IMG/VR virus record: IMGVR_UViG_3300009506_000099
Span: 1 to 48,307 of that record
DNA length: 48,307 nt
Reading direction: 5' to 3' (one strand)
Source: a virus
Every line of letters starts with the position of its first letter. Position 1 is the stretch's first letter. A program made the translations under genes and the position numbers. Below the pieces are notes generated by a model. It had not been told where the DNA came from and ran no database searches. It saw nothing but the letters and a program-made list of their open reading frames with translations. This document shows positions 5,893 through 47,217 of this stretch, piece after piece.

Positions 5893-7971
5893 ATGGAGAA
5901 AGTTCTTGAGCAAGACGAGGTAAGGGCAGAGGTTGTTGATTCTCCCTCTGATGATGGAGGAAATACAGTCTCTGATCCTATCCTTTCTTCTATCCCATCA
6001 GCTTTCTGGGATAAGATTAAGGATAACCTTGCCTTATATCTGGAGGAGGAGCTTCAAGAAGCAGAGGCTGAGAGGGGAGACTTCATTGATAATCTGGCTA
6101 GGTGGAAGGTTGTATACGCAGCTCCTAAACCAGATAGGCCCAAGAACTTTCCATTCACCAATGCTTCTAACCTAACAATCCCAGTAGTGAAGGAGACCGT
6201 TAATACCCTGGCTGCTCAGATTGCTCAGGCGACAGGGACTGTCAGGCCGAGGTGGGTATTTGATGATCTCGCCCCTGAGTGGAATCCATTCACTAATGAA
6301 CTGCAAGAGTTCCTCGACATCTCATCTGATAGGGAGCTAGGTTTTGAGGAGAAGACCACCGAGGGAGTTATTGCGAAGACGAAGTATGGTACAGCTATAT
6401 ACGAAGTCGGTCATGAGGTGGTTGAGAGGAAGTACTATCGCTACTCAAATGATGGGAAGAAAGTATATCCTAAGACGGTCATCGTCAAGGATGGGCCATC
6501 ATTGAGGTTGATACCTCTTCAGAAGTTCTGGATTCGCTTTGTAGAGGAAGGGATTCAAGAGGCTGCTTGGGTAGCGAAAGAGCTTGACTTTACTGAGCAT
6601 GAGCTTCGTATCAGAGCGGCACAAGGGGAGTTCTTCAATGTCGAAGAGATCATCAAGGGAGGAGGGCAGACCTACACTGATGAGGCTACCGAGGAAGAAG
6701 AGGCTGTTGAGGATAAGGAGCCTATCAGGAGAACATTCAAATGCTTCGAGATTTGGTTATCCTATGATGTTGATGGTCTGGGGGATCTCGAGGAGATAAA
6801 GGTCTTGTTTCACCGTGAAACGAGAAAATTCCTCTATGCTCGTTTCAATCCCTATGATCATGGGCAGAGGCCATTTGTAAAGGATGGATTCTTCCCTGTT
6901 GATGGTAGGTTCTATGATATGGGCTTGTGTGAGATGCTGGAGCAGATTCAGGATGCTATCTCCCTCAAGCATAATCATAGGAATGATAATGAGACCTTGG
7001 CCAATATGAAGATGTTCCTCAAGAGGAAATTGGTTAAAGGTCTCCAGCCAGGAGATCCCCTCTATCCTGGGAAACAGATCGAGGTTACGGATATCTGGAA
7101 TGATATCAGAGAGTTCTCCCTTAGTGAGATCTATCCTTCGACTGTTCAGGAAGAGATGCTTCTTCGCCAGGTTGCGGAACGCTTGACTGGGACGAATGAA
7201 GGAGTTGCTGGAGCTGCGATGCCAGTCACTCGAACAGGGACTGGCGCACAACTCGCACTTCTTCAAGAGCAGTCAAAGAGGATTGATATTCCTGTTAAGG
7301 CCACAAGGAGAGCCATCAATGAGATTGGTTGGTTCTCCTTGATGATGTATATGCAATTTGGCACTAATGGGAAAGCTCTTGCATGGATGGGAGAGAAAGG
7401 TAGGATTGTCGAGAGTGTCTTCTCTCTTCCAAGGAGAGTTGTAGAACTGGGTCTCGGCATAAGAGCCAATGCTCCAACATCTATGCAGAATATGCAGGTT
7501 AGGAGAGAGAATGCTATCGCTATGTTCAATCTCCTTGTCCAGATTCACGAGAAGCTAGCACCTATGGCGCAGATGTTGGCTCCTCAACAGTTAGGAGAAT
7601 TCGTTCATGCTATGGTTCGGTCGGCTAAGCACTATGCTCAGAACGTACTGGAGACGTTTGACGAGCCTGATCCGGACTCTGTGCTTGCGGGTCTTAGTGC
7701 ACTGGAGAGGCTATTACCTAGACCGGAGGATCTCGGTGGATTGGAAGCTTTCGAAAGAGGAGCTGACTCAGCTGAAGTCATTGAAGGCATCAGAAGGTTG
7801 GAAAGTCTATATGCGGAAGCTGAAGGAGCTCTCGAAGGACGCAGAAGAGTATCTGATGAGCGCAGAAACGGAGAAGGAACTCTTTCGGCGTCAAGGAGTG
7901 GTGAGAGGAATTTCGGTAATCTTGAGCTTGGAGGAGAATCTTACCTTAAGTCAAGAGTACAGCCAGGATGA
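5893..7971 (+). CDS. Portal protein
   Basis: 692 aa, lying immediately upstream of the scaffold/decoration/capsid genes. Size and position are typical of portals. No catalytic motif is expected. Confidence 0.7.
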   Translation: MEKVLEQDEVRAEVVDSPSDDGGNTVSDPILSSIPSAFWDKIKDNLALYLEEELQEAEAERGDFIDNLARWKVVYAAPKPDRPKNFPFTNASNLTIPVVKETVNTLAAQIAQATGTVRPRWVFDDLAPEWNPFTNELQEFLDISSDRELGFEEKTTEGVIAKTKYGTAIYEVGHEVVERKYYRYSNDGKKVYPKTVIVKDGPSLRLIPLQKFWIRFVEEGIQEAAWVAKELDFTEHELRIRAAQGEFFNVEEIIKGGGQTYTDEATEEEEAVEDKEPIRRTFKCFEIWLSYDVDGLGDLEEIKVLFHRETRKFLYARFNPYDHGQRPFVKDGFFPVDGRFYDMGLCEMLEQIQDAISLKHNHRNDNETLANMKMFLKRKLVKGLQPGDPLYPGKQIEVTDIWNDIREFSLSEIYPSTVQEEMLLRQVAERLTGTNEGVAGAAMPVTRTGTGAQLALLQEQSKRIDIPVKATRRAINEIGWFSLMMYMQFGTNGKALAWMGEKGRIVESVFSLPRRVVELGLGIRANAPTSMQNMQVRRENAIAMFNLLVQIHEKLAPMAQMLAPQQLGEFVHAMVRSAKHYAQNVLETFDEPDPDSVLAGLSALERLLPRPEDLGGLEAFERGADSAEVIEGIRRLESLYAEAEGALEGRRRVSDERRNGEGTLSASRSGERNFGNLELGGESYLKSRVQPG
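6807..6821. promoter_or_regulatory. parS/OB-like palindrome, perfect: GTTTCAC-C-GTGAAAC
   Basis: Read directly from the sequence. It lies inside the portal CDS, encoding LFHRET. Confidence 0.6.
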
Positions 7972-8051
7972 GATTATGGAAATGAGATTGAGGGAAATCT
8001 TCGGAGGTACCGAGGATTTGTTGAGAGTCCTACCCCAATGAGGAGGGATAT

Positions 8052-8822
8052 ATGAACTGGTGGAAAACTATGCAGAGGTTTTCCTTTCGGGAAACAGATG
8101 ATGACCCTGGTCTCGAGGAGGATCCGACTCTAGATGAGGGTGATGATCCTGCGGATGGAGGAGGTGATCCAGCTCCAGCGGTTTCAGGGATTTCGAGAGA
8201 AGCTCTCCCCGAAGAGCTCAGGAATCTTCCTGAAGCTGAAGTCAAGTTCCATCTAAATCAGATGGTGTCAGGCTTCAGGAATCAACATTCTCAGGTTGGA
8301 AAGCTGAGAGAGGAGTTGGAAGAACTAAGGAGAAGATCTTATCAAGAGGAAGCTAAGCCGAAGGAACCAGATCGTCCTCTCGAGGAAGAGATTCTGGATG
8401 ATCCAGAAAATGCTGTGATGAGGGTCCTTGAGAAGAGAGGTCTTGTCCAACGATTTAACCGGCTTGAGCAGGATGTTGGAGAGAGTGCTATATCCATGGT
8501 AGCCTCTCAGATTCCTGACTTCAAGGAGTATGAAGGGGAGGTAAGAGAAATTCTAAAGCAGACTGGTGTCCCTATGACGGTCGATGCTATTCATGGAGCT
8601 CTCCAAATGGCAATAGGAAGGAAGTATCTATCCGATGGTGGGAGGGAGAGAAGGAAACAACATAAGGTTGACTCTCCCAAACCAGAGGCTCCAAAGAAGA
8701 CTAGTAAGTATGGAGAGTTGAGTGGCCTCGAAGCTGAGATCTTTCAGTCTTCTGGAATGTCAAGAGAAGAGTGGGAGAAGAACAAGAATCCTGATTTCGA
8801 TATTGAGGTGCCTACATCATGA
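8052..8822 (+). CDS. Scaffolding protein (putative)
   Basis: 256 aa between the portal and capsid genes, with an acidic N-terminus and a charged helical, coiled-coil-like composition. Confidence 0.55.
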   Translation: MNWWKTMQRFSFRETDDDPGLEEDPTLDEGDDPADGGGDPAPAVSGISREALPEELRNLPEAEVKFHLNQMVSGFRNQHSQVGKLREELEELRRRSYQEEAKPKEPDRPLEEEILDDPENAVMRVLEKRGLVQRFNRLEQDVGESAISMVASQIPDFKEYEGEVREILKQTGVPMTVDAIHGALQMAIGRKYLSDGGRERRKQHKVDSPKPEAPKKTSKYGELSGLEAEIFQSSGMSREEWEKNKNPDFDIEVPTS

Positions 8823-9788: not shown

Positions 9789-10715
9789 ATGCCTGTCGTA
9801 CGAGGACAGTGGGATGAGCTCCTGCGACCTGGAGCCAACAAGGTGTTCCTTGATGAATATCCTCAGCTTCCTTCTCTTTACACGAAGATTTTCTCTGTTG
9901 AGACTTCGGGTAAGAGCTTTGAGGATGACCTGGTAGCCACTGGTCTGCCGATTGCCGTGAGCAAGCCCGAAGGTGAGCCAATCGCCTTCGACCGACCGAA
10001 GTACCGTGGGAAGGTTCGGTACCTCCATGCCGGATATGGGCTTGGTTACGAGATCACTCGGGAGGCCGTTGAGGATGATGTCTATAAGGCTCTCAATAGT
10101 AAGGGAGCCGCAAACCTGGCTTGGTCCCTGAGGGAGGCTGAGGAGGTTACTGCTTGGAACATCATCAATCTCTCGTTCACCACAGTTCAGGCTTATGATG
10201 GGGTTGCTCTCTGCTACGATGCTCACCCCACTGTTACCAGCACGCTGGCTAATAGACCTGGAACTGATGAGGATCTCTCTACTGCGGCTCTGAAGGCTAG
10301 CATGGAGAGATGGTGGGCTCTCACTACTGATCGAGGCCTGAAGATCCAGATTCTTCCCACTATGCTCTTGGTGGGGAATGCGAACTTCTGGGCCGCTCAG
10401 GAGATTCTCCAGACTCAGTATATCACTGGTGCAGCCACTGGTGGTGAGGTTGATACCATCGTGTCTGAGAGGGTCCCGAATATGGTTGGGAAGCTCGGCC
10501 TGACTCCGATGCGTTCCAACTATATCACCGATGATGATGCCTGGTGGACTCTTGGAAGTAAGGGAGTTCACAAGCTCCGGTTCTATTGGAGGACCAAGCC
10601 TCAGAGTGTTGATGGTTTGGATAAGAGGCGTCAGATCTTCTGGTATGGGATCTTCGCTCGTTGGAGCGCTGGTGTCACTGACTGGAGAGGTATTGACGGC
10701 TCTACTGGAGCCTAA
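9789..10715 (+). CDS. Major capsid protein
   Basis: 308 aa with strong RBS AAAGGAGGAG upstream. It follows the portal, scaffold and decoration-like genes. Confidence 0.7.
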   Translation: MPVVRGQWDELLRPGANKVFLDEYPQLPSLYTKIFSVETSGKSFEDDLVATGLPIAVSKPEGEPIAFDRPKYRGKVRYLHAGYGLGYEITREAVEDDVYKALNSKGAANLAWSLREAEEVTAWNIINLSFTTVQAYDGVALCYDAHPTVTSTLANRPGTDEDLSTAALKASMERWWALTTDRGLKIQILPTMLLVGNANFWAAQEILQTQYITGAATGGEVDTIVSERVPNMVGKLGLTPMRSNYITDDDAWWTLGSKGVHKLRFYWRTKPQSVDGLDKRRQIFWYGIFARWSAGVTDWRGIDGSTGA

Positions 10716-15335: not shown

Positions 15336-15801
15336 ATTCTCCTCTATATCCAAGGAGTCTATAGGGACGTGTCATCCCCTTATCAAGATGCTCCTTTACT
15401 CAGCTATCGAGTATTGGGATTTCATTATCCTCTATGGATTCAGGGATAAGGAGAAGCAGGATTATTTCTACGCGGAGGGAGTGTCGAAGGTCAGGTGGCC
15501 TAATTCCAAGCACAATCACCTCTCCACACAAGAGGATGTTGATGCTGGATGGGCAGAAGGTACTGATGAGCCGCTCTCCCTGGCCTTCGACTTCGCTCCG
15601 TGGCACTCAACTGGGAAGCATATTAGATGGAATGAGAAAAGGGAGTTCTATCACATGGCAGGTCTTCTCCTAGGCATGGGAGAGAGGATAGTAACTCCGA
15701 CAGAGTATAAGTGGAGGTATGGGGGAGACTGGGATTCAGACCAGGATCTCGGGGATCAGACTTTCTTGGATCTCGGGCATATTGAACTCGTTGAACGGTG
15801 A
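15316..15801 (+). CDS. Endolysin, peptidase M15 (VanY / L-Ala-D-Glu peptidase-like)
   Basis: NSKHNH ... LAFDFAPW ... DLGHIEL matches the H..D...H zinc-ligand layout of M15 peptidases. It lies next to the holin. Confidence 0.7.
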   Translation: MGRKMPRFSSISKESIGTCHPLIKMLLYSAIEYWDFIILYGFRDKEKQDYFYAEGVSKVRWPNSKHNHLSTQEDVDAGWAEGTDEPLSLAFDFAPWHSTGKHIRWNEKREFYHMAGLLLGMGERIVTPTEYKWRYGGDWDSDQDLGDQTFLDLGHIELVER

Positions 15802-15804
15802 AAC
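15790..15804. promoter_or_regulatory. parS/OB-like site GTTGAAC-G-GTGAAAC
   Basis: It covers the endolysin stop codon and ends 3 nt before the ATG at 15808. Its reverse complement is identical to the site at 44777. Confidence 0.55.
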
Positions 15805-27218: not shown

Positions 27219-27233
27219 GTTTAACCGTGAAAC
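27219..27233. promoter_or_regulatory. parS/OB-like site GTTTAAC-C-GTGAAAC
   Basis: It covers the polymerase stop codon (TFHG*). On the minus strand it ends 3 nt before the ATG of the RHH gene. Confidence 0.55.
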
Positions 27234-29817: not shown

Positions 29818-29992
29818 TATCAGTCTCTCTCCTTACTACGACTAGAAGTTCATATCCTAAGCAGACCATCATGGCTGCTCCGTCATTCATCTTCTTAATA
29901 TTATCACAGTCTAAGTCATTAAGGTAGACTGTTACCTTATTCTTTATCGTCCCTTTTGGATGGTCCAGTTTAACTTGCATAAACATGCTCAC
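29792..29992 (-). CDS. Hypothetical small protein (66 aa or shorter)
   Basis: ORF overlaps both neighbours. Internal Met starts are possible. Confidence 0.3.
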   Translation of the reverse strand: MSMFMQVKLDHPKGTIKNKVTVYLNDLDCDNIKKMNDGAAMMVCLGYELLVVVRRETDNERENSTD

Positions 29993-31304
29993 TTAGGATA
30001 AGATTACCAAGCTCCGCTCTTTCTTTATCAAGCTCGTATCCCACATACTCACACTGAAGATCAAGTGCCCCCAAGCCTGTTGATCCAACACCTGCAAAGG
30101 GATCGAGGATTCTTCCACCACCAAGGGAGATCATAGAGATTACTTCCTTACAGAGATCCCTTGGCATCTGCATAGCGAAGTCTCTCTCACTCGGATTCAG
30201 GGTGTCATAGATAAATATGTCCTGCTTTCCTTGTTTGAGAAGAACAGCGTCTCCCTTCGAAGCAAAGACCATAGCCTCATAGGAGACAATCATGCCTTTC
30301 CTTGGATCGCCTATTATCCCTTGTGTCTTGTTGGGCTTCACCCAGATAGGAGGAACGAGGGTTACATAAGAGAACCCTACATCCTCGAGCCAGAAGGCTA
30401 GGCCCATTGAGTCATATAGAAGCTTCTGATCAATCGAGGTCCTTCCTTCTAGCTTCTTATACAACTCTCTTTGCATATTGTTGTATGTTATCTTCCTCAC
30501 ATCGAACCAGGCTACCAGCCAACTGTCATCCTTGAGGACTCTATAAGCTTCTCGAATAACGTCTTGAACCAGTCCATTAATGTACCCCTCTTCATCCTCA
30601 TATACTTTCTTTCCTCCCTTCAATTCAAAGTCTACACCGAATGGGAAGTTAGTGACGACAGCATCGAAGCTCTCATCTTCCTCTTCCTTGATAAGATCTC
30701 TGGCATCCCCAGCCTTGATAATAGCAGGGATGGAAGGGGCCTTACCTTTCTTCTTCCTTTCTATCTCCTTCTTCCGCTTCGATATCTTCTTATCAGTATC
30801 CCTTTTACTGAGAGCACCACGGAGAGTCTTCTCTTGTTTCAGGGATGGATCTTCTTTCATTGCCTTCGAGAGATCCACGCTTTTCGATACAGTCGCCTTG
30901 CTCTTTCCTACCATTGCCGCAGTCTTTGCCATGCTCCATTCTGGATCCTCCTCCTGTTTGAGGTCATGGATCTCAGCGATGGCGGCAGCCTCTTCATACC
31001 ACTCAAGCTGTTTCCGTCTGATGTTCTCCTCGAGTTCTATTTCCTTCTGTTCGATAACAGATAGCTCCTCTTTGAACTTGGCATCAATGTTCTTCCAACC
31101 AAGTTTGAGGGCTCCCATTATCCGAGTGAAGCCAGCGACAAGTTCGATCTCTCCATCTTCATTCCTGTTAACTACGATGGTGGAGAGCTGGCCGAACTTC
31201 TTGAGAGACTCAGCCATTGTATTAATGTCTTCGTCTGTCAACTCTTTCCTCTGTCGAGGCTTAATCTTTATGTCCTTGATACTTACATTAGGCATCCTCT
31301 TCAC
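29970..31304 (-). CDS. ParB/Srx N-domain + ParB-type HTH fused to an N6/N4 DNA methyltransferase
   Basis: ParB box: IKIKPRQRKEL..FGQLSTIVV..ELVAGFTRIMGA. HTH: SMAKTAAMVGKSKATVSKSV. Basic linker: KKISKRKKEIERKKKGK. MTase motif IV-like VVTNFPFG lies upstream of motif I DPFAGVGSTG (beta-type order). Confidence 0.85.
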   Translation of the reverse strand: MKRMPNVSIKDIKIKPRQRKELTDEDINTMAESLKKFGQLSTIVVNRNEDGEIELVAGFTRIMGALKLGWKNIDAKFKEELSVIEQKEIELEENIRRKQLEWYEEAAAIAEIHDLKQEEDPEWSMAKTAAMVGKSKATVSKSVDLSKAMKEDPSLKQEKTLRGALSKRDTDKKISKRKKEIERKKKGKAPSIPAIIKAGDARDLIKEEEDESFDAVVTNFPFGVDFELKGGKKVYEDEEGYINGLVQDVIREAYRVLKDDSWLVAWFDVRKITYNNMQRELYKKLEGRTSIDQKLLYDSMGLAFWLEDVGFSYVTLVPPIWVKPNKTQGIIGDPRKGMIVSYEAMVFASKGDAVLLKQGKQDIFIYDTLNPSERDFAMQMPRDLCKEVISMISLGGGRILDPFAGVGSTGLGALDLQCEYVGYELDKERAELGNLILSEHVYAS

Positions 31305-35575: not shown

Positions 35576-35590
35576 GTTTCACGGTGAAAC
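35576..35590. promoter_or_regulatory. parS/OB-like palindrome, perfect: GTTTCAC-G-GTGAAAC
   Basis: Its last base is the first base of the sulfotransferase-like gene's stop codon, and it lies 22 nt from the -35 of the promoter at 35525..35553. Confidence 0.6.
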
Positions 35591-38345: not shown

Positions 38346-38351
38346 CTCTCC

Positions 38352-39337: not shown

Positions 39338-39737
39338 TCAGATAAATAGGGAACTCCTCTCCTGGATGACAGGAGCAGGTCAGATATTTCCCCGTGAAAC
39401 AAGGGTCCTTATGCTCTCTCATGAATTGAGCTAGATAATAATGACCTCGCTTGATTGAGAAGGATATGATACCCTCTTCATAATCAAGGAGGGGAGCTAT
39501 GATATCTCTTGGGTCTATGGGTGGAGTGAAGCGATAGAGATCAGAGAGTACCTGCTTAGGATCAAGACCTATATTAGATGATCGGGCGAGGTACTCAAAG
39601 ATAGAGGGAGAGACCTTGAATGTTACCTTCTCGAATCCTCCATAGACCCTCCTCTCCTGGAGGGAAGGATAGGTCTCTACCCTTCCCGTACCAGGGAGGA
39701 AGAATGAGAAAGGGCGGGATGAGTTTATTCGTCCCAC
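39288..39737 (-). CDS. Hypothetical protein (149 aa)
   Basis: Long ORF in the early arm. It contains the degenerate parS-like site at 39386. Confidence 0.5.
   Translation of the reverse strand: MGRINSSRPFSFFLPGTGRVETYPSLQERRVYGGFEKVTFKVSPSIFEYLARSSNIGLDPKQVLSDLYRFTPPIDPRDIIAPLLDYEEGIISFSIKRGHYYLAQFMREHKDPCFTGKYLTCSCHPGEEFPIYLSALPSYLFDEEEYEDG
39386..39400. promoter_or_regulatory. Degenerate parS-like site ATTTCCC-C-GTGAAAC
   Basis: The right half is perfect. The left half resembles a Noc-type ATTTCCC half-site. It lies inside a CDS. Confidence 0.35.
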
Positions 39738-39943: not shown

Positions 39944-39979
39944 ATCATGGTTAAGATGAATAGAAGGGTGAGGATGAAC

Positions 39980-40210
39980 CTAATAAGGTCTCTCATTGTA
40001 AGATTGCCTCACCTTAGAATGGTGGATGAGGAAGACTATAGTCCTCTCTCCTCTACCTGGGATGTTGTGAGAGAAGGGGACATAATCTATCGAGCCTGCA
40101 TTCTCCGATAGTTGAAAGGTTCGATTGCACTCGGTACATGAGACTACCTGCCCGAGTGCATTGAACTCCTCAACTTGGAGATAGTGGTGCTTACACCTTG
40201 CCAATCTCAC
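39980..40210 (-). CDS. Cys-containing small protein (76 aa), possible zinc ribbon
   Basis: CKHH...CTEC pattern. Confidence 0.4.
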   Translation of the reverse strand: MRLARCKHHYLQVEEFNALGQVVSCTECNRTFQLSENAGSIDYVPFSHNIPGRGERTIVFLIHHSKVRQSYNERPY

Positions 40211-40219
40211 TCTTCCTTT

Positions 40220-40588: not shown

Positions 40589-40611
40589 CTTTCCACCTTC
40601 CTATTTCAGTC

Positions 40612-41094
40612 TCAGTTCTGGTTGAACACTTGACTCCAATCGAACTTATCTTCACCCTCCATCAGATCAAGCTGTGCTTCCTTCTCCTTTCTCTCCTCGA
40701 GCTGTGCCTTGAGTTCTTCATATACCGAGTCGAAGATTTCCTTCGTCCCTCTCGATATGTGATCCCACTCAATCCTCTTTGCCTCGGGGATAGGCAGTCG
40801 AATGATGTCAGCGAGCATCATGACCTTGTTGAGTGCATCCCTTATATTGTTCGAGGCATCAATACAGAAGGTATGAATGGCAACCTTCGAGTCGAGGGAG
40901 GCGAAGGTAGAGTCAGTGTACTCTCTGCACTTCTCTCCTAGTATTTCATCGAGTCCAACAAGGAAGCTGACCTGTTCCTCGAAAGCCTTCTGATAATCCA
41001 TCTTCATTGTTCCTTCTCCTTTTGTGAAGAGAGGAAGGATGTACTCAGTTAGGGCATGAGGCAGGATAGAGGCCTCGGGTAGATCTGAGTACAT
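40612..41094 (-). CDS. Hypothetical protein (160 aa)
   Basis: Strong SD GGAGGAGG immediately upstream of the ATG. Confidence 0.55.
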   Translation of the reverse strand: MYSDLPEASILPHALTEYILPLFTKGEGTMKMDYQKAFEEQVSFLVGLDEILGEKCREYTDSTFASLDSKVAIHTFCIDASNNIRDALNKVMMLADIIRLPIPEAKRIEWDHISRGTKEIFDSVYEELKAQLEERKEKEAQLDLMEGEDKFDWSQVFNQN

Positions 41095-41110
41095 CCTCCT
41101 CCTTCATGTT

Positions 41111-41275
41111 TCAGTCTCGTTCTTCCTTCGGGGGATCAAGGGCGACAGCGAGTTCGAGTGCTGTCTTGAAGTCTGGGCAGATCACTAGGCCAGAGTCTAC
41201 TACCTCTGTCCTGTCTGCCTTGTCGAGGGAAAGGCGGATCGTGACCCGCTTATCCCTGCCTGATGGGTGTTTCAC
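41111..41275 (-). CDS. Small RHH-like protein (54 aa), absent from the ORF track
   Basis: GTG start overlapping the upstream TGA (GTGA), with an AGGAGAGG SD. KRVTIRLSLDKADRTEV looks like an RHH strand-helix. Confidence 0.4.
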   Translation of the reverse strand: MKHPSGRDKRVTIRLSLDKADRTEVVDSGLVICPDFKTALELAVALDPPKEERD

Positions 41276-41613
41276 TTTTCTTCCTCTCCTTTATACATCG
41301 GGGTTAGTGGGAAGTTGTCAATCAGATACTTAATCCCATCATCTCCGAAGATAGTGTAACGAGGATACCTATCCCATGTGATGAGGATGAGTCCATCTAC
41401 GTAGGAATCGGCTGGCCGGAGGAGGGCAACTTCAGTACCAAGATCATTGTAGATAGTGAGAAGATCGTAGACCTCGAGGTTATCCTCGAGGCCCATATCT
41501 TCTTGGTAAACTCCCCAATACTGAAGGAGTTCCTTGGTAGCTAGCTGAACCCAAGGAGGCCAGTCTCTTGGGTGGGTGTACTTGTTATGAGAATGTGGTT
41601 GATCAGGAGTCAC
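41272..41613 (-). CDS. Hypothetical protein (113 aa)
   Basis: ATGA-type overlap with the upstream gene. Confidence 0.5.
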   Translation of the reverse strand: MTPDQPHSHNKYTHPRDWPPWVQLATKELLQYWGVYQEDMGLEDNLEVYDLLTIYNDLGTEVALLRPADSYVDGLILITWDRYPRYTIFGDDGIKYLIDNFPLTPMYKGEEEK

Positions 41614-41813
41614 TTGATGCTCCTAACTATTCCTCCCTCGACCTCAGCCTGGCCGTACCAGGTGTGGGCGGCAGGGTAGTGAGGGCCTTCGACGAACACT
41701 TTGCCGTCTTGTGGACATGGGAAGGGACCAGGTGAGAAGACTTTAACCTCTTCTCCCTGCGAGAGGGCCTCTTTCAGGGCCTTCTTCGTCTTGAAGTTTG
41801 GGCTTACATACAT
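41610..41813 (-). CDS. Hypothetical protein (67 aa)
   Basis: First ORF downstream of the promoter at 41879..41907. Confidence 0.5.
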   Translation of the reverse strand: MYVSPNFKTKKALKEALSQGEEVKVFSPGPFPCPQDGKVFVEGPHYPAAHTWYGQAEVEGGIVRSIK

Positions 41814-41878
41814 GATAGGTACCTCCTGTCTCGGTCTAAGGTGATCGGTCGGCTTGCCCTGAATCCAACCGATGATAT

Positions 41879-41907
41879 AATATAACAGAATTAATGCCGA
41901 GAGTCAA
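41879..41907 (-). promoter_or_regulatory. Sigma70-type promoter: TTGACT, 17-nt spacer, TGtTATATT
   Basis: The minus strand reads TTGACTctcggcattaattctgtTATATT. It lies just downstream of the terminator at 41941..41986. Confidence 0.7.
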
Positions 41908-41932
41908 GAGAGTGGGGGGATTGGCGCTTGGA

Positions 41933-41986
41933 TATAAGAAAGGGGGATCAGATCCAGGAAAGGTGGAAAGTGGATCTGATCCCCCT
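41933..41986 (-). terminator. Rho-independent terminator after early paralog A
   Basis: A perfect 16-bp stem (AGGGGGATCAGATCCA / TGGATCTGATCCCCCT) with a 14-nt loop, followed on the minus strand by TTCTTAT. Confidence 0.65.
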
Positions 41987-41987
41987 C

Positions 41988-42002
41988 GTTTAACCGTGAA
42001 AC
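41988..42002. promoter_or_regulatory. parS/OB-like site GTTTAAC-C-GTGAAAC
   Basis: It lies between the stop of early paralog A and its terminator hairpin. The sequence is identical to the site at 27219. Confidence 0.55.
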
Positions 42003-42022
42003 AAGTTGGTTAAACGCTTCTC

Positions 42023-42385
42023 TTACCCTTCGATGGCGAAGCCAGCCGCCTTGAGGACTTCGAGCTGCTCGGCGGTGAACTTGCCCTTCTTCTGCATCTC
42101 CTTCGTGACAGGCTTGGCTCTCCTGCCGCCTCCACCACGACCAGACTTGTACTGGTAGGTGTCGACGTAGGATTGGACCGCATCCTCACCATCATCGAGA
42201 TATCCCCGGGCTCCAGCCTGCAGGGAGACACGGAGGGCCTTGAGTGCGAGGGTGTTGATGTCCTCGTCTGGATTCGAGACGATCTCATTCCATCTCTCAT
42301 CCTCGAGGTTCTCCGGCTCGTTGAACGTGACCTCTACTGAAGGTCCGCCTCGACGGGAGACAGTGAAGGTGGCTGCTTTCGACAT
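42023..42385 (-). CDS. Early protein, paralog A (120 aa)
   Basis: It has its own promoter (42443..42471) and terminator (41941..41986). It shares ATFTV, F..PE..EDE.W, DP..D...LA, Y...YKYG and FTA.Q with 44106..44447. Confidence 0.6.
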   Translation of the reverse strand: MSKAATFTVSRRGGPSVEVTFNEPENLEDERWNEIVSNPDEDINTLALKALRVSLQAGARGYLDDGEDAVQSYVDTYQYKSGRGGGGRRAKPVTKEMQKKGKFTAEQLEVLKAAGFAIEG

Positions 42386-42442
42386 CCTTTGCTCCTTTCA
42401 ATCTGGTTGCGTGAGTGGGGCTGGTTGCCCCGATTGCATTTG

Positions 42443-42471
42443 ATAATAACAGATGCTAACCCCATTGTCAA
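42443..42471 (-). promoter_or_regulatory. Sigma70-type promoter: TTGACA, 17-nt spacer, TGtTATTAT
   Basis: The minus strand reads TTGACAatggggttagcatctgtTATTAT. It drives early paralog A. Confidence 0.7.
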
Positions 42472-43004
42472 GAGTCTTGCTTCCTTAACAGGGCATTGAA
42501 TCCTGTTGTTTCCTCCTCCTCTATACGCTCGAAGGCATAGGTTAGTTTCTCTCCTTCCTCTCGACGGGTAGAGAGGTGCATGATCCAACCGAGAGAGGAG
42601 ACTTGTTCGGAGAAAAGGGTTTCATCGAAGGAGGAGGAGGGATAGAACTCAACGGGGACGAGGTTGCCCTTGTACTCGGAGAGGAAGACGAGTACCCATG
42701 CCTCTGTATTCCGAGGGAGGGATAGAGAAGCACTCGCTTTCCCTTTAGGTTGGATAGAGATGTGAGATCCTGTAGGGGAGGAGTGGATCTTCACATTTGA
42801 TCGGATAGAAGAGTATCTCCCTTGCTCGATGTCCGAGTACATCTGAGCTGCTTTCAGAATCCTGTTAAGTGAGTAAGCGATGGATGATATCTCATCAGGT
42901 GTTGAGGGAATGATTGTATCCTTCCCTTGCTTGAGGTTAGAGAGGATATCGTCGAGGAGATCGAGGTTCTGGAGAACGAGTTGACGATTGAGTGAGTAGC
43001 CCAT
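42468..43004 (-). CDS. Hypothetical protein (178 aa)
   Basis: Long ORF in the early arm. Confidence 0.55.
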   Translation of the reverse strand: MGYSLNRQLVLQNLDLLDDILSNLKQGKDTIIPSTPDEISSIAYSLNRILKAAQMYSDIEQGRYSSIRSNVKIHSSPTGSHISIQPKGKASASLSLPRNTEAWVLVFLSEYKGNLVPVEFYPSSSFDETLFSEQVSSLGWIMHLSTRREEGEKLTYAFERIEEEETTGFNALLRKQDS

Positions 43005-43007
43005 CTC

Positions 43008-43322
43008 TTATTCTCCTTCGAGGGAGGGAGTATGAGCTACGTCTGCATCTCCTTTCGATCCTCGTTCTTTATCGAGGTTGTCTGGGTCGACTCGTTCATC
43101 TGAGTCCTTGAGGAAGAGGGAGAAATCTCCGAGGCCTCGATCCCTGTCCTCGATGAAACAGGAGGGACAGAAGATTAGATCCTCTCCACTTGCTGAGACC
43201 TCAGAGGGCGAGGCGTATACATTCCTCGGATAGGTAGTAGGGGTGGTGAACTCCCTCATCCTTTCGGTGAGGGTGGAATCCCAACTCTTACCACAACGGG
43301 TACAGATGAGTGATGGGGGCAT
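43008..43322 (-). CDS. Zinc-ribbon early protein (104 aa)
   Basis: CTRCGKSW...CPSC. It follows the promoter at 43363..43391 and an AGAGGA RBS. Confidence 0.55.
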   Translation of the reverse strand: MPPSLICTRCGKSWDSTLTERMREFTTPTTYPRNVYASPSEVSASGEDLIFCPSCFIEDRDRGLGDFSLFLKDSDERVDPDNLDKERGSKGDADVAHTPSLEGE

Positions 43323-43362
43323 GAGCTTATTCCTCTGTTAGGGGACAACAATTGACAACATT

Positions 43363-43391
43363 AATTTAATGATAGGAGGGTGAGTTGTCAA
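43363..43391 (-). promoter_or_regulatory. Sigma70-type promoter: TTGACA, 17-nt spacer, TAAATT
   Basis: The minus strand reads TTGACAactcaccctcctatcatTAAATT, about 40 nt upstream of the ATG at 43322. Confidence 0.6.
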
Positions 43392-43454
43392 GTGAGAGGA
43401 CAATAACAAACAATAACATCATTAACTATTTTCCCTGAACGCGATTTGACAAAG

Positions 43455-43493
43455 CCTCTTCTTCCTTCCTCTTCTTCCTCTCTTCTCTTCTTC
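43455..43493. repeat. 39-nt pure polypyrimidine (C/T) tract
   Basis: cctcttcttccttcctcttcttcctctcttctcttcttc contains no purines. Confidence 0.9.
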
Positions 43494-43509
43494 AAGAATT
43501 ATATATAAG

Positions 43510-43530
43510 AAAAAAAAAAAAAAAAAAAAA
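43510..43530. repeat. A21 homopolymer
   Basis: 21 consecutive A residues, preceded by aattatatataag. Confidence 0.9.
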
Positions 43531-43639
43531 CAAGTATAGAAGCCTAACTGCTTGTCCCCAACTATGATTGTCAAATCGCGTTTCGAAGTTTTAGTTAATG
43601 ATGATGTTGTTGGTTGTTGTTGAGGGGGATATATAGAAG

Positions 43640-43715
43640 GAGACCTATATTTGATTCCTCTTCTTATCAAAGGAGGGGAGGAGAACGAGACATAGAGAGA
43701 CCTATATTTGATTCC
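43640..43715. repeat. Two copies of GAGACCTATATTTGATTCC, 57 bp apart
   Basis: Exact 19-mers at 43640..43658 and 43697..43715, with similar T-rich flanks ending in GGAGG. Confidence 0.85.
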
Positions 43716-43740
43716 CTTTTTTATTGAACAAGAGAGGAGG

Positions 43741-43776
43741 ATGAGAAAAGAAAAGGCCTCCCCGAAGGAAGGCCTT
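43741..43776 (-). terminator. Rho-independent terminator after 43791..44099
   Basis: AAGGCCT(CC)...(GG)AAGGCCTT stem, followed on the minus strand by TTCTTTTCTC. Confidence 0.65.
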
Positions 43777-43790
43777 CTCTCTTCTTTCTA

Positions 43791-44099
43791 TTAGTGGTCG
43801 AGTCTATCGTTTACGACAGCCTTGCTCACCCTCCAGATGCTTGCCTCGAAGCCGGCACTTCTGAGCTGGTCCAGTTCAAACATCGCCCTTTCAATCTTCC
43901 TCTCTTCGATGTCATCCTTGCTGACCTTGAAGGACTTGACGACCAGGAACAAATTGAGGTCGTTAGGCGAGACAATTCTCACCTCGATGGACGTGTACTC
44001 AACGGGGTCCTGGATTTCCACGAATCTCATGGTTCTCTCCTTTACCAAGGTTGTCAAAAAGCGAGAATGTTGCCTGACAACTGGGTTCCGGGAAGTCAT
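43791..44099 (-). CDS. Hypothetical early protein (102 aa)
   Basis: ORF followed by the terminator at 43753..43776. Confidence 0.55.
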   Translation of the reverse strand: MTSRNPVVRQHSRFLTTLVKERTMRFVEIQDPVEYTSIEVRIVSPNDLNLFLVVKSFKVSKDDIEERKIERAMFELDQLRSAGFEASIWRVSKAVVNDRLDH

Positions 44100-44105
44100 C
44101 CTACC

Positions 44106-44447
44106 TTACTTCGAGAGTTTGTAGTTGGTGCAAGTGGCACCGGTTGACTCGAGCTGGGCGATCTGCTGAGCCGTGAACTCGACTCCACCCAGGTCCATAA
44201 TGGTGATTCCACCCTTGGCCCCGTACTTGTAGGCCTCGAGGTATGCCTTGGCCGCTTCTGCGGTCTTCTGCTCCCTCATGCCAGGGGCGACCTTCACCTT
44301 CCAGTCATGCCAAGCCAGCGCCGAAACGTCCGTCTTGGGGTCCATGACCATTTGAGTCCAGAGCTCATCCTCCACATCTTTCGGCTCAGGATGCGAGAAC
44401 TCAGCACTCCACCCCCATTTTGGGGAAGTCACTGTGAACGTAGCCAT
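44106..44447 (-). CDS. Early protein, paralog B (113 aa)
   Basis: First gene of the minus arm and a homolog of 42023..42385. Its AGGTGG RBS lies in the 3' arm of a CCACCT/AGGTGG hairpin. Confidence 0.6.
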   Translation of the reverse strand: MATFTVTSPKWGWSAEFSHPEPKDVEDELWTQMVMDPKTDVSALAWHDWKVKVAPGMREQKTAEAAKAYLEAYKYGAKGGITIMDLGGVEFTAQQIAQLESTGATCTNYKLSK

Positions 44448-44511
44448 GTTGTTCCACCTTTCCAGGTGGACGGCTTCCCGGAACCCAGATTGTCAAACAA
44501 CACATTCGACC

Positions 44512-44598
44512 CCAACATGGTGCAAATAACGTGCCAACCAACATGGCCGGATTTCTTGGGGAATCCAACATGGGGAATGACATCTTGTCCCAACATGG
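44512..44598. repeat. Iteron-like array: four CCAACATGG mini-palindromes at 25-27 bp spacing
   Basis: Copies at 44512, 44538, 44565 and 44590. The fourth extends to TCCCAACATGGGA. Degenerate copies follow (ccacatatggg, ccatgccatgtggg). Confidence 0.8.
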
Positions 44599-44762
44599 GA
44601 CACCACATATGGGACAAGTTGTCCATGCCATGTGGGACCGAACAGATACCGAAAGGCCTTGATTCAACCCCGGGGGGTCCCCCCAAGGCGACGCCACCAC
44701 CAGAATAGCTCTCCGAGAATTTCTAGAATTTTGAAAAGTTATCCCTCTTGTTTAGAATAAGG

Positions 44763-44790
44763 ATTATCCCGAAGATGTTTCACCGTTCAA
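44763..44790 (-). promoter_or_regulatory. Candidate leftward promoter: TTGAAC, 16-nt spacer, GATAAT
   Basis: The minus strand reads TTGAACggtgaaacatcttcggGATAAT. The -35 and spacer lie inside the parS-like site. It implies a leader of about 300 nt. Confidence 0.4.
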
Positions 44791-44791
44791 C
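44777..44791. promoter_or_regulatory. parS/OB-like site GTTTCAC-C-GTTCAAC overlapping a leftward promoter
   Basis: It lies in the divergent control region. On the minus strand it supplies the TTGAAC -35 hexamer. Confidence 0.55.
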
Positions 44792-44904
44792 AAGTTTATA
44801 TTACTCTCTTCCTTATATTAGATTTCATTATCCAGAAAGGGACTATATAGGGAGACTCGTCCCTCGTTCTCGATGCTCTCCCCGATTCTCGATGAGGTTC
44901 GGGG

Positions 44905-44933
44905 TTGTATTCTGGCGAGAGTCGTTGTATAAT
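44905..44933 (+). promoter_or_regulatory. Candidate rightward promoter: TTGTAT, 17-nt spacer, TATAAT
   Basis: The plus strand reads TTGTATtctggcgagagtcgttgTATAAT, about 45 nt upstream of the ATG at 44977. Confidence 0.5.
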
Positions 44934-44976
44934 ATAGTGGAGGGTTGTATCCCTTTCCCCTTTCCAAAAGAAGAGA

Positions 44977-45498
44977 ATGAGTCGAGATCTCTTACCCACG
45001 CTCTCTCCAGAGAAGAGCTATCAACCTGAGAAGTGGACATCTCTTCACAGATATATGGTTCTCCTTGAGATAGCTGGGAAGAAACCTAAAGAGATCGCAG
45101 AGATCGTAGATATGTCGATCTCTAGGGTTTCAGTTATCCTCGGTGACCGCCGAGCAGAGATCGAACGGCTCTCCCTTGCAGAAAAACTCTCCGATCAGAT
45201 TACAGATATCCATACCAAGCTTCAACTCTATGCTCACGAGGCTCTCGAAACTGTTATTGATGAGATGAGAGCCCCGGAGAATAAGAGTGAACTTAGAGTG
45301 AAGGTAGGTTTCGGGATCCTCGATAGGGCAGGCTTTACCCCTGTTCAGAAGCAGGTAGTAGCTCATGCAGAGATTCCTGTAGAGATTGCTGAGAGAATGG
45401 AGATTGTCGCCTCAGAACTCAAGGAGAATAGGCCAGTTTATGAGAAGGTAAAGCCGAAGATTGACGAAGCTGAGTTCGAGGTTATGGAAGATGACTGA
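44977..45498 (+). CDS. HTH protein, small terminase subunit candidate
   Basis: 173 aa directly upstream of, and overlapping, the large terminase gene. KKPKEIAEIVDMSISRVSVILGD resembles a sigma-region-4/LuxR-type HTH. Confidence 0.5.
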   Translation: MSRDLLPTLSPEKSYQPEKWTSLHRYMVLLEIAGKKPKEIAEIVDMSISRVSVILGDRRAEIERLSLAEKLSDQITDIHTKLQLYAHEALETVIDEMRAPENKSELRVKVGFGILDRAGFTPVQKQVVAHAEIPVEIAERMEIVASELKENRPVYEKVKPKIDEAEFEVMEDD

Positions 45499-47200
45499 TC
45501 TCGACCTTGGTATGCTCGTCGAGGAGGTCTTTGAGCCCTCAGAGATTGAGAATCTACCATCTCTAAAGGGTTTGAAGAAGGCTCACGGCGATCTTACTGA
45601 GTCTCTTAGGCAGGGAATCCGCTCTCAGGCCCTCAAAAGTACCTATTTCCTAGCAAAAGTAGTCCTTGGATACACGAAACTCAACATCCGAGTCCACCTT
45701 CCGATGTGTGAGTTCATAGATCAGACAGAAGCCTACACTCGTAGGATGGCTCTGATGCCTAGGACTCACTTCAAGACGACTATTTGGACCATAGCTCACT
45801 CAATTAAGCTCGTCTGTAACAATCCGAATATAAGAATCCTCATGATAGCGGACACTGGGACTAACGCCAGCCGCTTTATGCAGGAAATCCAGCAGCACTT
45901 CGAGTTCAATGAAGTATTTCGATGGGTTTTCCAGGAGATTATCCCAGATAACTTCACAAAAACGCGTTGGAGCCAATATGAGATGGTCGTTAAGAGGTCT
46001 CTCATTGCCCGTGAGCCGACGATCGACGCTATTGGCGCACTGGGAGGCTCAGAATCTAGGCACTACGATTGGATCAAGGCGGATGACCTCGTTACTGAGA
46101 AGTGTATTCGCTCGGATGTGGAGATGGATAAGGTAATCCATTGGTCAGGGGGCCTCGAGAGCCTTCTCATCAATCAAAAAGGGGATCATATTGACTTTGT
46201 GGGGTCAAGAAAGAAGAAGGGAGATCTGTACGAGCACCAGGAGAAGATGTATAGCCTAGGGATGGAGAAAGTCGACATCGGACCCCATGCTTATGCGATA
46301 GGAGAGATGGCCGTCTTCACCCGTTCAGCGATTGAAGAAGGAGAAGTTATATTTCCTGAGCAGATCTCCCTTCGTTTCCTCATTCGTCTCCGTAAGACTG
46401 ATCCTCAACGCTACCACGCTCAGTATGCTAACTCCCCCAAAGGTACAGGTCTCAATACTTTCGATGTAAGGGATCTACGTTACTATACCTTTGATGGAGC
46501 TGGGAATATAATCTGTGTCCACAATAAAGATGTACTCCTCGAGGTATCACCATGGAGCCTTGACCGTATAGTTCTCTTCGATCCCTCGGTTGCCGAGAAG
46601 CAGGCTAACTCTCAACAGGCGATCATTGTAGTTGCTAAAGGCTCAGGGCCTTTTCGTATAGTGCTCGAGACTCACATTGGTCACTTTCTTCCAGATGAGG
46701 CCATTAAGCTACTTTTCGATATGGATAAGAAGTGGCATCCGTCAGTCGTCTCTATTGAGAAGAGAGGATTTCAGGGTTGGGTTAAGTATGGTCTCTCGGA
46801 GATTGCAGACCTTAAGGGAATCCCTTATCCTCCTATAGTCGAGTGGCCCCTAGAGGGAGCCTCGAACTCTCAGTGGAGTAAGGTCGAGCACATCAGAGCT
46901 ATGCAACCTATGATTAGGGCCAATTACCTTTGGGTACATGAGACTCAAGTGGATCTTATTGATCTCGTTGAATTCTATCCAAATGTGAGGTGGGATGATG
47001 GACTTGATGCTCTAGCCCAGGCGATGGACTACTGGCCTATGATGATGGATGAGCAAGAGGTTCAAGCTAAGAAGAGAGCTGAGGACGAGTTCCTCATGAA
47101 GAGTTTCCTCGGCTATTCTCCTCCTGAGGATAGCTGGGATGAGAGGGAGTTCCTCCGCTCATTCGATTATACAGGTTATAATCAGATATATGAAGCATAG
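45491..47200 (+). CDS. terL: Terminase large subunit
   Basis: MPRTHFKTT is Walker A-like, as in Terminase_6. DWIKADDL is Walker B-like. IVLFDPSVAEK opens an RNaseH-like nuclease domain. The track start is TTG 45461; ATG 45491 gives an ATGACTGA overlap with the upstream stop. Confidence 0.85.
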   Translation: MTDLDLGMLVEEVFEPSEIENLPSLKGLKKAHGDLTESLRQGIRSQALKSTYFLAKVVLGYTKLNIRVHLPMCEFIDQTEAYTRRMALMPRTHFKTTIWTIAHSIKLVCNNPNIRILMIADTGTNASRFMQEIQQHFEFNEVFRWVFQEIIPDNFTKTRWSQYEMVVKRSLIAREPTIDAIGALGGSESRHYDWIKADDLVTEKCIRSDVEMDKVIHWSGGLESLLINQKGDHIDFVGSRKKKGDLYEHQEKMYSLGMEKVDIGPHAYAIGEMAVFTRSAIEEGEVIFPEQISLRFLIRLRKTDPQRYHAQYANSPKGTGLNTFDVRDLRYYTFDGAGNIICVHNKDVLLEVSPWSLDRIVLFDPSVAEKQANSQQAIIVVAKGSGPFRIVLETHIGHFLPDEAIKLLFDMDKKWHPSVVSIEKRGFQGWVKYGLSEIADLKGIPYPPIVEWPLEGASNSQWSKVEHIRAMQPMIRANYLWVHETQVDLIDLVEFYPNVRWDDGLDALAQAMDYWPMMMDEQEVQAKKRAEDEFLMKSFLGYSPPEDSWDEREFLRSFDYTGYNQIYEA

Positions 47201-47202
47201 AT

Positions 47203-47217
47203 GTTTTACGGTGAAAC
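47203..47217. promoter_or_regulatory. parS/OB-like site GTTTTAC-G-GTGAAAC
   Basis: It starts 3 nt after the terL stop codon, upstream of the small basic gene. Confidence 0.55.

Follow-up and report, generated by a model that had tools for sequence, protein, structure and literature searches.

Dispersed parS-like palindromes as candidate recognition sites for a phage ParB-HTH-methyltransferase

Eight palindromes across a 48-kb phage genome

The window analysed here is a 48,307-nucleotide stretch of viral DNA (IMG/VR record IMGVR_UViG_3300009506_000099). This 48-kb phage genome contains eight copies of the 15-bp palindrome GTTTCAC-S-GTGAAAC, which consists of two parS half-sites and one extra central base, and a gene for a ParB-HTH-methyltransferase fusion protein. 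A motif search of the window reproduced exactly the eight sites, coordinates and mismatch counts reported in the first-pass annotation:

Site 1, 6807..6821: GTTTCACCGTGAAAC, perfect; left flank CTT; within the portal gene 5893-7971
Site 2, 15790..15804: GTTGAACGGTGAAAC, 2 mismatches; spans the TGA stop of 15316-15801; 3 nt separate its end from the ATG at 15808
Site 3, 27219..27233: GTTTAACCGTGAAAC, 1 mismatch; includes the polA stop codon, with 3 nt between its end and the ATG of the small gene that follows
Site 4, 35576..35590: GTTTCACGGTGAAAC, perfect; left flank CTT; overlaps the stop of 35590-36135
Site 5, 39386..39400: ATTTCCCCGTGAAAC, 2 mismatches, the most degenerate; right flank AAG; within 39288-39737
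Site 6, 41988..42002: GTTTAACCGTGAAAC, 1 mismatch; right flank AAG; intergenic
Site 7, 44777..44791: GTTTCACCGTTCAAC, 2 mismatches; in a divergent intergenic region
Site 8, 47203..47217: GTTTTACGGTGAAAC, 1 mismatch; right flank AAG; begins 3 nt beyond the terL stop (47198-47200)

Neighbouring sites are at most 11.4 kb apart around the genome. Six of the eight lie at gene boundaries, as the earlier annotation had placed them, and two lie within genes: the portal gene and 39288-39737, a conserved minus-strand gene of 149 aa. The ORFs previously labelled 'endolysin' and 'sulfotransferase-like' have no Pfam match. An outward extension of the palindrome, GTGAAACAAG/CTTGTTTCAC, occurs five times in the window, and the earlier count of four sites sharing an extended flank is corrected accordingly.

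Three sites are close to promoter-like hexamers, which are consensus matches only. Site 4 is about 25 bp upstream of a strong sigma70-like promoter on the minus strand (35553->35525) that serves the Pam3_gp32/PDDEXK/AAA_24 operon, and site 6 is about 80 bp upstream of another minus-strand promoter-like site (41907->41879). Site 7 coincides in part with TTGAAC, the -35-like hexamer of a leftward promoter-like site (44790->44763); a rightward one (44731->44758) is located just upstream of it.

The palindromes are real and non-random. Against the eight observed, 100 dinucleotide shuffles give an expected count of 0.04 and 1000 codon-permuted shuffles give 0.063, with a maximum of 1 in either case; the claimed enrichment thus withstands a codon-preserving control. 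A blind scan for any recurrent 7-N-7 palindrome returns GTTTCAC-S-GTGAAAC as the sole outlier, with a score of 15 versus a null maximum of 6. Chance or a compositional artefact could appeal to the degeneracy of three sites and nothing more. It is refuted by the shuffles, none of which exceeds one match, and the motif is also kept at syntenic places in the related phage L145, including the place of site 4; practically no weight remains on this explanation.

Clustering at gene ends would also fit RNA-level hairpins that act in termination, processing or translational coupling. Sites 2 and 3 occupy the ribosome-binding-site position, and site 1 folds at -10.1 kcal/mol (z = -3.5), but most sites fold weakly (-1.9 to -8.8 kcal/mol), no better than shuffles, and have no U tract. 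A terminator scan of 34000-48307, which spans five of the eight sites, calls none, and Rfam gives no match. In addition, the sites are kept as palindromes in either orientation of transcription; the central base, which is C or G in all eight window sites, is unconstrained in other elements. A role in RNA is thus highly improbable.

The ParB-HTH-methyltransferase fusion

The fusion gene is on the minus strand and encodes three recognisable parts:

29970..31304, minus strand: ParB-HTH-methyltransferase fusion; Pfam ParB_N and N6_N4_Mtase; PHROG ParB-like and MTase families
31020..31292, minus strand: ParB N-terminal NTPase fold, aa 5-95; box I PRQRK, box II GFTR (GxxR), box III ENIRR
30858..30938, minus strand: ParB/Noc-type helix-turn-helix (HTH), aa 123-149; WSMAKTAAMVGKSKATVSKSVDLSKAM
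30009..30665, minus strand: beta-class N6/N4 DNA methyltransferase domain, aa 214-432; catalytic TNFPFG, AdoMet motif DPFAGVGSTG

The protein has 444 aa, or 441 aa if it starts at the ATG at 31295. Box III comes directly after box II, and the RQR, GxxR and EN residues are invariant across 19 orthologues. Residues 7-182 align with Noc, Spo0J and ParB through the HTH in a PDB sequence search (E 1e-11 to 1e-7), and Foldseek superposes the N-terminal half of the AF2 model on 6t1f, the Caulobacter ParB-parS complex, with an rmsd of 2.6 A over 145 columns. The fusion protein has a ParB NTPase fold and a ParB-type HTH. In its C-terminal half, TNFPFG precedes DPFAGVGSTG, the motif order of beta-class amino-DNA methyltransferases, in which a (D/N/S)PP(Y/F)-type catalytic motif comes before FxGxG, and Foldseek matches the AF2 model of this half to CcrM (6pbd, E 1e-12), TTHA0409, M.BceJIV, MboIIA, RsrI and PvuII. 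Orthologues number at least 120; the majority combine the same two Pfam domains, and many are on contigs of 45-50 kb.

Several components of canonical ParB systems are missing. No ParA is found in the window by tblastn with two ParA queries, and no ORF scanned matches ParA, CbiA or AAA_31, AAA_24 being the sole ATPase there. The ParA-binding motif LG-R/K-GL is likewise absent, since the protein begins MKRMPNVSIKDIKIKPRQRK and contains no LG[RK]GL anywhere. Because it has neither ParA nor a ParA-binding motif, the phage system is not a partition system. The C-terminal dimerisation domain of ParB is also absent, with the N6_N4 methyltransferase occupying aa 214-432. Closure of a clamp would therefore require a methyltransferase dimer, and such dimerisation is inferred only, from the fold likeness to CcrM, MboIIA and RsrI.

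The fusion protein is the sole recognisable sequence-specific DNA-binding protein in the window, and a scan of 30 early ORFs revealed no further HTH or DNA-binding domain. Most early ORFs are ORFans without a Pfam match, which leaves room for a hidden reader: the palindromes could be operators for a different, unannotated dimeric DNA-binding protein of the phage, such as a small ORFan repressor or activator of the operons that begin at the site-bearing gene boundaries, with the ParB-methyltransferase unrelated to them. The gene-boundary positions of six sites and the three sites at or near sigma70-like promoters would suit operators. The in-gene sites in the portal gene and 39288-39737, and a conserved site within a tail gene in relatives, are odd for operators, however, and the half-site is that of parS in a genome whose only ParB-type HTH belongs to the fusion protein.

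Half-sites in related phages and other elements

Relatives of the phage had to be sought by alignment-based scans: megablast of 25 kb against GenBank phages gave no match, and single-protein scans of IMG/VR with terL and polA gave none. A metagenome_contigs scan contributed one close relative among the matches listed. The relatives are available only as pieces of 12-22 kb with one to four sites each.

As the first-pass annotation had proposed looking for, palindromes and ParB-methyltransferase genes do co-occur in syntenic phages, and the palindrome sequence covaries with the HTH helix. Fifteen syntenic relatives have 15-bp 7-N-7 palindromes at similar places, and the half-site varies by lineage (GTTTCAC, GTTTAAC, GTTCATC, GTTCAAT, GTACAAT, GTGCAAT). 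The polA-primase interval, the place of site 3, holds a site in most relatives whose fetched locus spans it. When the seven palindrome classes are tabulated for 16 syntenic loci, the resulting matrix is block-diagonal with respect to the HTH helix; the contigs of P0008, which has a further helix class, are short and contain one site only. The palindrome class can switch between close relatives, and an in-gene site that is homologous in the two phages is ctcGTTCATCAGTTGAACaag in L147 and ctcGTTTAACAGTTGAACgag in L316. This pattern indicates, from sequence comparison alone, that the half-site class follows the HTH recognition helix and not phage phylogeny.

Two lineages on GTTTAAC are the clearest instance. 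L316 carries the helix GVSKSTVSQA and is nearest to the GTTCATC phages L147 and L149 (polA 65-66%), whereas L315 carries GISKTQVSMS, is nearest to the GTTCAAT phages, and has a polA only 44% identical to that of L316. Two unrelated lineages with an S-K helix have thus both arrived at GTTTAAC, apparently by convergence. Any phage-encoded reader would co-evolve with its sites, so covariation alone would also suit an unannotated regulator. That the motif class tracks the helix of this particular protein across phylogenetically separate lineages is harder for such a regulator to accommodate.

More distant phages (polA 24-30% identity) keep the ParB-methyltransferase beside polA. No recurrent palindromes occur within +/-10 kb of it, and no convincing recurrent palindromes (arms 7-8 bp, gaps 0-3) were found in the distant sets L157-L257 (identity 22-30%) or L322-L372 (polA 24-30%). 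Specific sites are therefore no general requirement of ParB-methyltransferase fusions, and this absence counts in favour of a separate regulator. The palindrome outliers that did emerge in the distant phages were rejected as GC-rich codon-bias patterns.

The motif also occurs outside this phage family. In both L070 and L103, the plasmid-type (type Ia) parA-parB operon is followed directly by centromere-like arrays of GTTTCAC-S-GTGAAAC. In bacteria, the motif with the extra base is located tens to hundreds of bp from canonical GTTTCACGTGAAAC, either near parA/parB or in the origin-proximal rnpA-yidC-mnmE locus. These occurrences show that parS variants with one added base belong naturally to centromere regions on plasmids and chromosomes. 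The plasmid ParB of L103, next to the GTTTCAC arrays, shares G.SKAT[VI][ST]K with the helix of the window protein and is 32% identical to it over 112 aa (E 2e-7). The same helix residues in a plasmid ParB beside the same motif, in an unrelated element, are a further point against a separate regulator. A search with a local ParB-N HMM across the motif-rich loci L002, L003, L010 and those of Oscillospiraceae, Pseudomonas, Halorhodospira and Stutzerimonas recovered the L070 ParB only. The only family common to the window and these loci is terL, so the motif is not explained there by a small reader protein shared among them. An unannotated phage regulator cannot be excluded as the reader in the window, but we regard it as unlikely.

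Host ParB, chromosomal or plasmid-borne, is another conceivable reader, recruited to position or segregate the phage DNA or titrated by it. The class A (GTTTCAC) half-sites are identical to those of canonical parS, and the presence of the variant among canonical parS near parAB and origin-proximal genes implies that some cellular ParBs may tolerate the added base. The window, however, contains no canonical 14- or 16-bp parS within 2 mismatches, as opposed to eight sites with the extra base. The GTTCATC, GTTCAAT, GTACAAT and GTGCAAT half-sites of the relatives do not fit the highly conserved chromosomal parS, and the class switches between close relatives. We consider this explanation improbable.

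The reading that we favour, with reasonable though limited confidence and in the absence of binding data, is that the palindromes are cis-acting, parS-like loading sites recognised by the HTH of the phage's own ParB-HTH-methyltransferase. This was the core proposal of the first-pass annotation, and it gains support from the ParB-linked motif in other elements, the alignment with Noc, Spo0J and ParB, the superposition on 6t1f and the covariation of site and helix.

Related systems and a proposed mechanism

Chromosomal parS and Noc-binding sites (NBS) are even-length palindromes of 16 and 14 bp. The phage half-site GTTTCAC is identical to that of parS, and the N-terminal domain and HTH of the fusion are homologous to those of ParB and Noc, with E 1e-11 for Noc. 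The phage sites differ by one extra central base, and the phage protein differs in having no ParA, ParA-binding motif, C-terminal dimerisation domain or membrane-targeting helix. Phage N15 has inverted repeats that are reportedly dispersed in its genome, in accounts attributed to Ravin and Lane (1999) and Grigoriev and Lobocka (2001). Like the window, N15 places several separate palindromic sites for a ParB-family protein, SopB (centromere IR1-4; PMC7205306), in a phage genome without a single array. N15 is a plasmid prophage that uses SopA/SopB for partition, whereas the present phage has no ParA and its ParB fold is fused to a methyltransferase. The ParB2-parS2 system of Vibrio cholerae combines a plasmid-type ParB with a 15-bp inverted-repeat centromere at about ten dispersed sites, but its half-site is TGTAAA and it is a true partition system with ParA2 (PMC3688505).

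Precedents come from KorB/OB and BisD/bisS, in which a ParB-fold protein with a non-canonical effector loads at palindromes of odd length on the element that encodes it (PMC11790492, PMC12409273). KorB of plasmid RK2 has a ParB-family NTPase fold and an HTH, and its operator, TTTAGC-G-GCTAAA, is an odd-length palindrome with a central S, which bears out the form TTTAGC-S-GCTAAA given in the first-pass annotation (PMC11790492). Multiple copies of this operator are spread through the replicon, both at promoters and far from them, and KorB forms a CTP-dependent sliding clamp (PMC11790492). KorB is both a repressor and a partition protein; it keeps its C-terminal dimerisation domain and partners IncC (a ParA) and KorA. 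The phage C-terminus is instead a DNA methyltransferase, with no ParA and no KorA-like partner identified.

BisD of ICEclc is a hybrid ParB: a non-canonical effector is joined to its NTPase fold and DNA-binding region, and the protein loads at a small number of odd-length palindromes within the mobile element that carries its gene (11-bp inverted repeat, central n; PMC12409273). Its effector domain is needed for clamp formation, and BisD spreads about 50 kb (PMC12409273). In BisD the effector is a non-enzymatic transcription-activator domain that works with BisC; there are two bisS sites versus eight here, and the sequences are unrelated. On our best reading, the phage locus is a new variant of the KorB/BisD-type ParB networks.

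The same architecture, PF02195 plus PF01555, appears in a survey of ParB-fold proteins as the phage ParB-CTPase-N6N4 methyltransferase fusion (PMC12704722). In the portion of the survey available to us, this architecture is frequent in phages and prophages, is among the commonest ParB-like phage architectures, and is given neither a function nor cognate DNA sites (PMC12704722). Relative to that portion, the new elements are the set of sites and its covariation with the HTH, and the phage family supplies concrete candidate DNA targets. The accessible part of the survey also reports that only 11 of 28 purified ParB-fold proteins bind NTP, and it names no N6N4-MTase fusion among the binders (PMC12704722). 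On these partial data, clamp behaviour of the fusion remains unproven.

By inference, a dimer of the fusion protein would dock at each palindrome, with one HTH per 7-bp half-site and one spacer base between them. If the analogy with ParB, KorB and BisD applies, the N-terminal domains would then close as nucleotide binds, and the protein would leave the site and spread on neighbouring DNA. Because the sites are at most 11.4 kb apart around the genome, the methyltransferase would be concentrated on phage rather than host DNA. The predicted outcome is fast self-methylation, for instance against restriction, the methylation itself being inferred, as are NTP use and the coupling of methylation to sliding. 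A second, non-exclusive output may be a KorB-like effect on the promoters adjacent to 35576, 41988 and 44777.

A more speculative version, which we hold only tentatively and would not expect to stand in full, unites these steps. About eight private sites would load a ParB-type nucleotide-gated clamp with a methyltransferase as cargo; the clamp would slide over the 2-11 kb between sites while methylating and give the phage rapid self-protection without modification of the host; and the site/HTH pairs would diversify into orthogonal specificities like those of incompatibility groups. If true, clamp-delivered methylation would be a new means by which a virus distinguishes its own DNA from that of its host, and enzymatic cargo would join partition, nucleoid occlusion, repression and activation as outputs of the ParB-type switch.

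The phage family forms a natural specificity series that matches seven half-site classes to defined variants of the recognition helix, among them the S-K helix with GTTT.AC. It also serves as a compact model for the re-coding of specificity by ParB-family HTHs, and the combination of targets and helix variants makes the function of the fusion directly testable.

Within the window, the two arms of the palindrome are not always equally kept. Several sites have one degenerate half, a point against the loading-site reading, and the right half-site is the better kept in five of the six imperfect sites, an asymmetry judged not significant. The left half of site 5 recalls the Noc-binding half-site ATTTCCC, a resemblance that we take to be coincidental.

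Palindromes of the window and their placement

The palindrome GTTTCAC-S-GTGAAAC occurs eight times in the window with two or fewer mismatches, starting at 6807, 15790, 27219, 35576, 39386, 41988, 44777, and 47203. A mismatch-tolerant scan exactly reproduced these copies, which had been listed in the first-pass annotation. Dinucleotide shuffles of the window gave 0.04 expected copies, and the enrichment also held against 1000 shuffles permuting codons within genes (0.063 expected, maximum 1). In a blind search of the window for any recurrent 7-N-7 palindrome, this motif was the sole outlier. The set is real and non-random. Its longer form is CTTGTTTCAC-S-GTGAAACAAG, with GTGAAACAAG present five times in the window, and neighbouring sites are separated by 2.4-11.4 kb on a circular map.

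The degenerate left half of the site at 39386, ATTTCCC (39386-39392), equals the Noc-binding-site half, a likeness that is probably coincidental. The window sites have canonical parS half-sites plus one extra central base, and no canonical even-spaced parS is present in the window. Odd length is shared with KorB OB (PMC11790492), BisD bisS (PMC12409273), and the 15-bp parS2 (PMC3688505).

The window is a 48,307-bp contig in the database and hence probably a complete phage genome. Three blocks emerge from gene calls and Pfam/PHROG searches: structural (rightward), replication and early (leftward, with many ORFans), and terminase (rightward). The leftward block also contains a DUF3987 primase/helicase and AAA_24, PD-(D/E)XK, and Pam3_gp32-like genes.

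Principal genes of the window
5893-7971, rightward, SU10-type portal
9789-10715, rightward, capsid
14600-15094, rightward, holin
21499-25920, rightward, large tail gene
27221-29557, minus strand, UDG-PolA fusion (UDG-superfamily domain, 3'-5' exonuclease, and family A polymerase)
29970-31304, minus strand, ParB_N and N6_N4_Mtase fusion
45461-47200, rightward, terL

Gene boundaries hold six of the eight sites; a stop codon is overlapped by three of the six, and in two the palindrome stops exactly 3 nt short of a downstream ATG. The sites at 6807 and 39386 lie within the portal gene and a conserved small gene, respectively. Sigma70-like promoters, identified by consensus matches only, adjoin the sites at 35576 and 41988 and overlap that at 44777.

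At the two sites preceding an ATG (window 15805-15810 and 27213-27218), the palindrome fills the ribosome-binding-site position, and no Shine-Dalgarno sequence is evident. Near-consensus minus-strand sigma70 promoters dot the leftward early region (35525-35553, 42443-42471, 43363-43391, 41879-41907) with the pattern TTGACA-17-TATATT/TATTAT and, in several, an extended -10 TG, which suggests that the host uses standard sigma70 promoters.

The fusion protein and its recognition helix

The palindromes are judged, with moderate confidence and without experiments, to be the recognition sites of the 29970-31304 product, a ParB-HTH-methyltransferase. Its residues 7-182 align with Noc, Spo0J, and ParB over the NTPase fold and HTH (E down to 1e-11), and 19 orthologues show no change in RQR of box I, GxxR of box II, or EN of box III. 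Structure matches to its AF2 model (pLDDT 81) fall into two groups: the N-terminal half matches Noc and the Caulobacter ParB-parS complex 6t1f (rmsd 2.6 A), and the C-terminal half matches the beta-class amino-methyltransferases CcrM, TTHA0409, M.BceJIV, MboIIA, RsrI, and PvuII. The protein lacks the LG-R/K-GL motif and the canonical C-terminal dimerisation domain, and no ParA was found in the window. Thirty early ORFs, most of them ORFans, yielded no further HTH or DNA-binding domain.

More than 100 orthologues (34-72% identity) exist, many on 45-50 kb contigs. Fifteen syntenic loci were fetched, with relatives seen only as 12-22 kb pieces; their common gene order is Pam3_gp32 - PDDEXK - AAA_24 - ... 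- ParB-MTase - ... - polA - primase - tail gene. Among these loci, conservation of the motif extends only to the closest relative, L145 (72% identity), which carries it at the end of a homologous 181-aa gene and in the polA-primase interval; no GTTTCAC-class motif occurs in more distant syntenic relatives. In comparable positions these instead hold 15-bp 7-N-7 palindromes of other sequence. Most lineages have them in the polA-primase interval; further positions are beside Pam3_gp32/PDDEXK, behind AAA_24, and, in three loci, within the tail gene. The half-sites of these palindromes are GTTTAAC, GTTCATC, GTTCAAT, GTACAAT, GTGCAAT, and, at one site, GGTCAAT. Tabulating loci against motif classes gives a block-diagonal matrix whose blocks coincide with recognition-helix class.

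Recognition helix and half-site class
GKSK[AT]TVS[KR]S: GTTTCAC
G[IV]SK[TS].VS..: GTTTAAC
GEALGT[VI]SQS: GTTCATC
G.S[VL]GTV[SQ]QS: GTTCAAT
NVSRQTVYNS: GTACAAT
GLSRRTVYNA: GTGCAAT

Specificity encoded in the helix would predict this pattern, for which neither common descent alone nor a conserved host factor readily accounts. By pairwise identity, the two GTTTAAC phages, L315 and L316, are not each other's nearest relatives: L316 is closest to GTTCATC phages (polA 65-66%, methyltransferase part 68-72%), L315 to GTTCAAT phages (polA 56-58%), and their polA identity to each other is only 44%. Both share S-K at helix positions 3-4, as do the window, L145, and the unrelated plasmid ParB of Halorhodospira scaffold L103, all with GTTTCAC. 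Within the tail gene, the left half of a homologous site is GTTCATC in L147 and GTTTAAC in L316. The coincidence of half-site class and recognition helix supports the core of the first-pass reading, namely parS/KorB-operator-like sites paired with the phage's own ParB-HTH protein.

Proposed mechanism and extent of the network

Conserved NTPase-fold residues, dispersed spacing, and the KorB and BisD precedents suggest that binding may be followed by nucleotide-gated loading and spreading; in that case the methyltransferase would become concentrated on phage DNA. Its fold resembles that of enzymes that act as dimers, and dimerisation of this domain could replace the missing C-terminal dimerisation. 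KorB-like influence on adjacent promoters would be an equally possible output. The system falls outside the ParABS partition family; it fits best among the ParB-type site/clamp systems, as a new variant whose effector is a methyltransferase.

No recurrent palindromes were found either within 10 kb to each side in distant phages keeping ParB-MTase beside polA or in unrelated ParB-MTase phages, so the site network characterises this clade rather than such fusions in general. The architecture is common in phages according to the portions consulted of a survey, which give neither function nor DNA sites for it (PMC12704722). No description of cognate sites of ParB-MTase fusions was found in the literature.

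The ParB-MTase-polA neighbourhood is kept even where polA identity is only 24-30% (phages L322-L372). Directly upstream of the fusion gene, a 186-aa ORF (31403-31963, minus strand) has a weak Cpn10 match (E 0.002) as its sole Pfam match; a 160-210 aa ORF abuts or overlaps the fusion gene at the same position in fetched syntenic relatives. The 186-aa product may be a functional partner.

The motif in other elements

In scans of public collections, the +1-spaced parS variant proves to be a real ParB-associated element. In Stutzerimonas contig L070 and Halorhodospira scaffold L103, a type Ia parA-parB operon is followed directly by 4-7 copies. Pseudomonas MAG contig L135 (JAWWDH010000071, 1-900) packs nine copies into 700 bp, several of them spaced by 37 bp, in what looks like a centromere or iteron array; three ORFs tested beside the array had no Pfam match. 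Canonical GTTTCACGTGAAAC sites occur within tens to hundreds of bp of the variant in L049, L092, L088, L131, L077, and L082, with ParA-like genes close by in the last four. Rhodothermales/Salinibacteraceae chromosomes (L049, L092, L086, L060) carry variants in the origin-proximal rnpA-yidC-mnmE locus; those of Rhodothermales L049 (3365, 3829, 5837, 6261) lie in and just after mnmE. The L049 and L092 variants have canonical even-spaced parS as neighbours, so both spacings may be tolerated or used by cellular ParBs.

Phage contigs L002/L005 (IMGVR_UViG_3300042556_000729) and L003 (IMGVR_UViG_3300012005_000014), a T7-like podovirus and a GATase/amidoligase-carrying phage (both ~43 kb, GC 57-62%), each hold 5-6 intergenic copies of the same palindrome, GTTTCAC-N-GTGAAACA, close to the terminase and early region. 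The fetched parts showed no ParB-like gene, and the only other likeness of these contigs to the window is a weak terminase match. Firmicute mobile elements with a serine recombinase and RepA_N (L091/L125, Oscillospiraceae contig CANQRQ010000013; L089/L066/L133; L136), in whose visible 8-16 kb no ParB was found, carry 5-9 dispersed intergenic copies of the longer palindrome TGTGTTTCAC-S-GTGAAACACA; a GTCTCAC variant is also present in L136.
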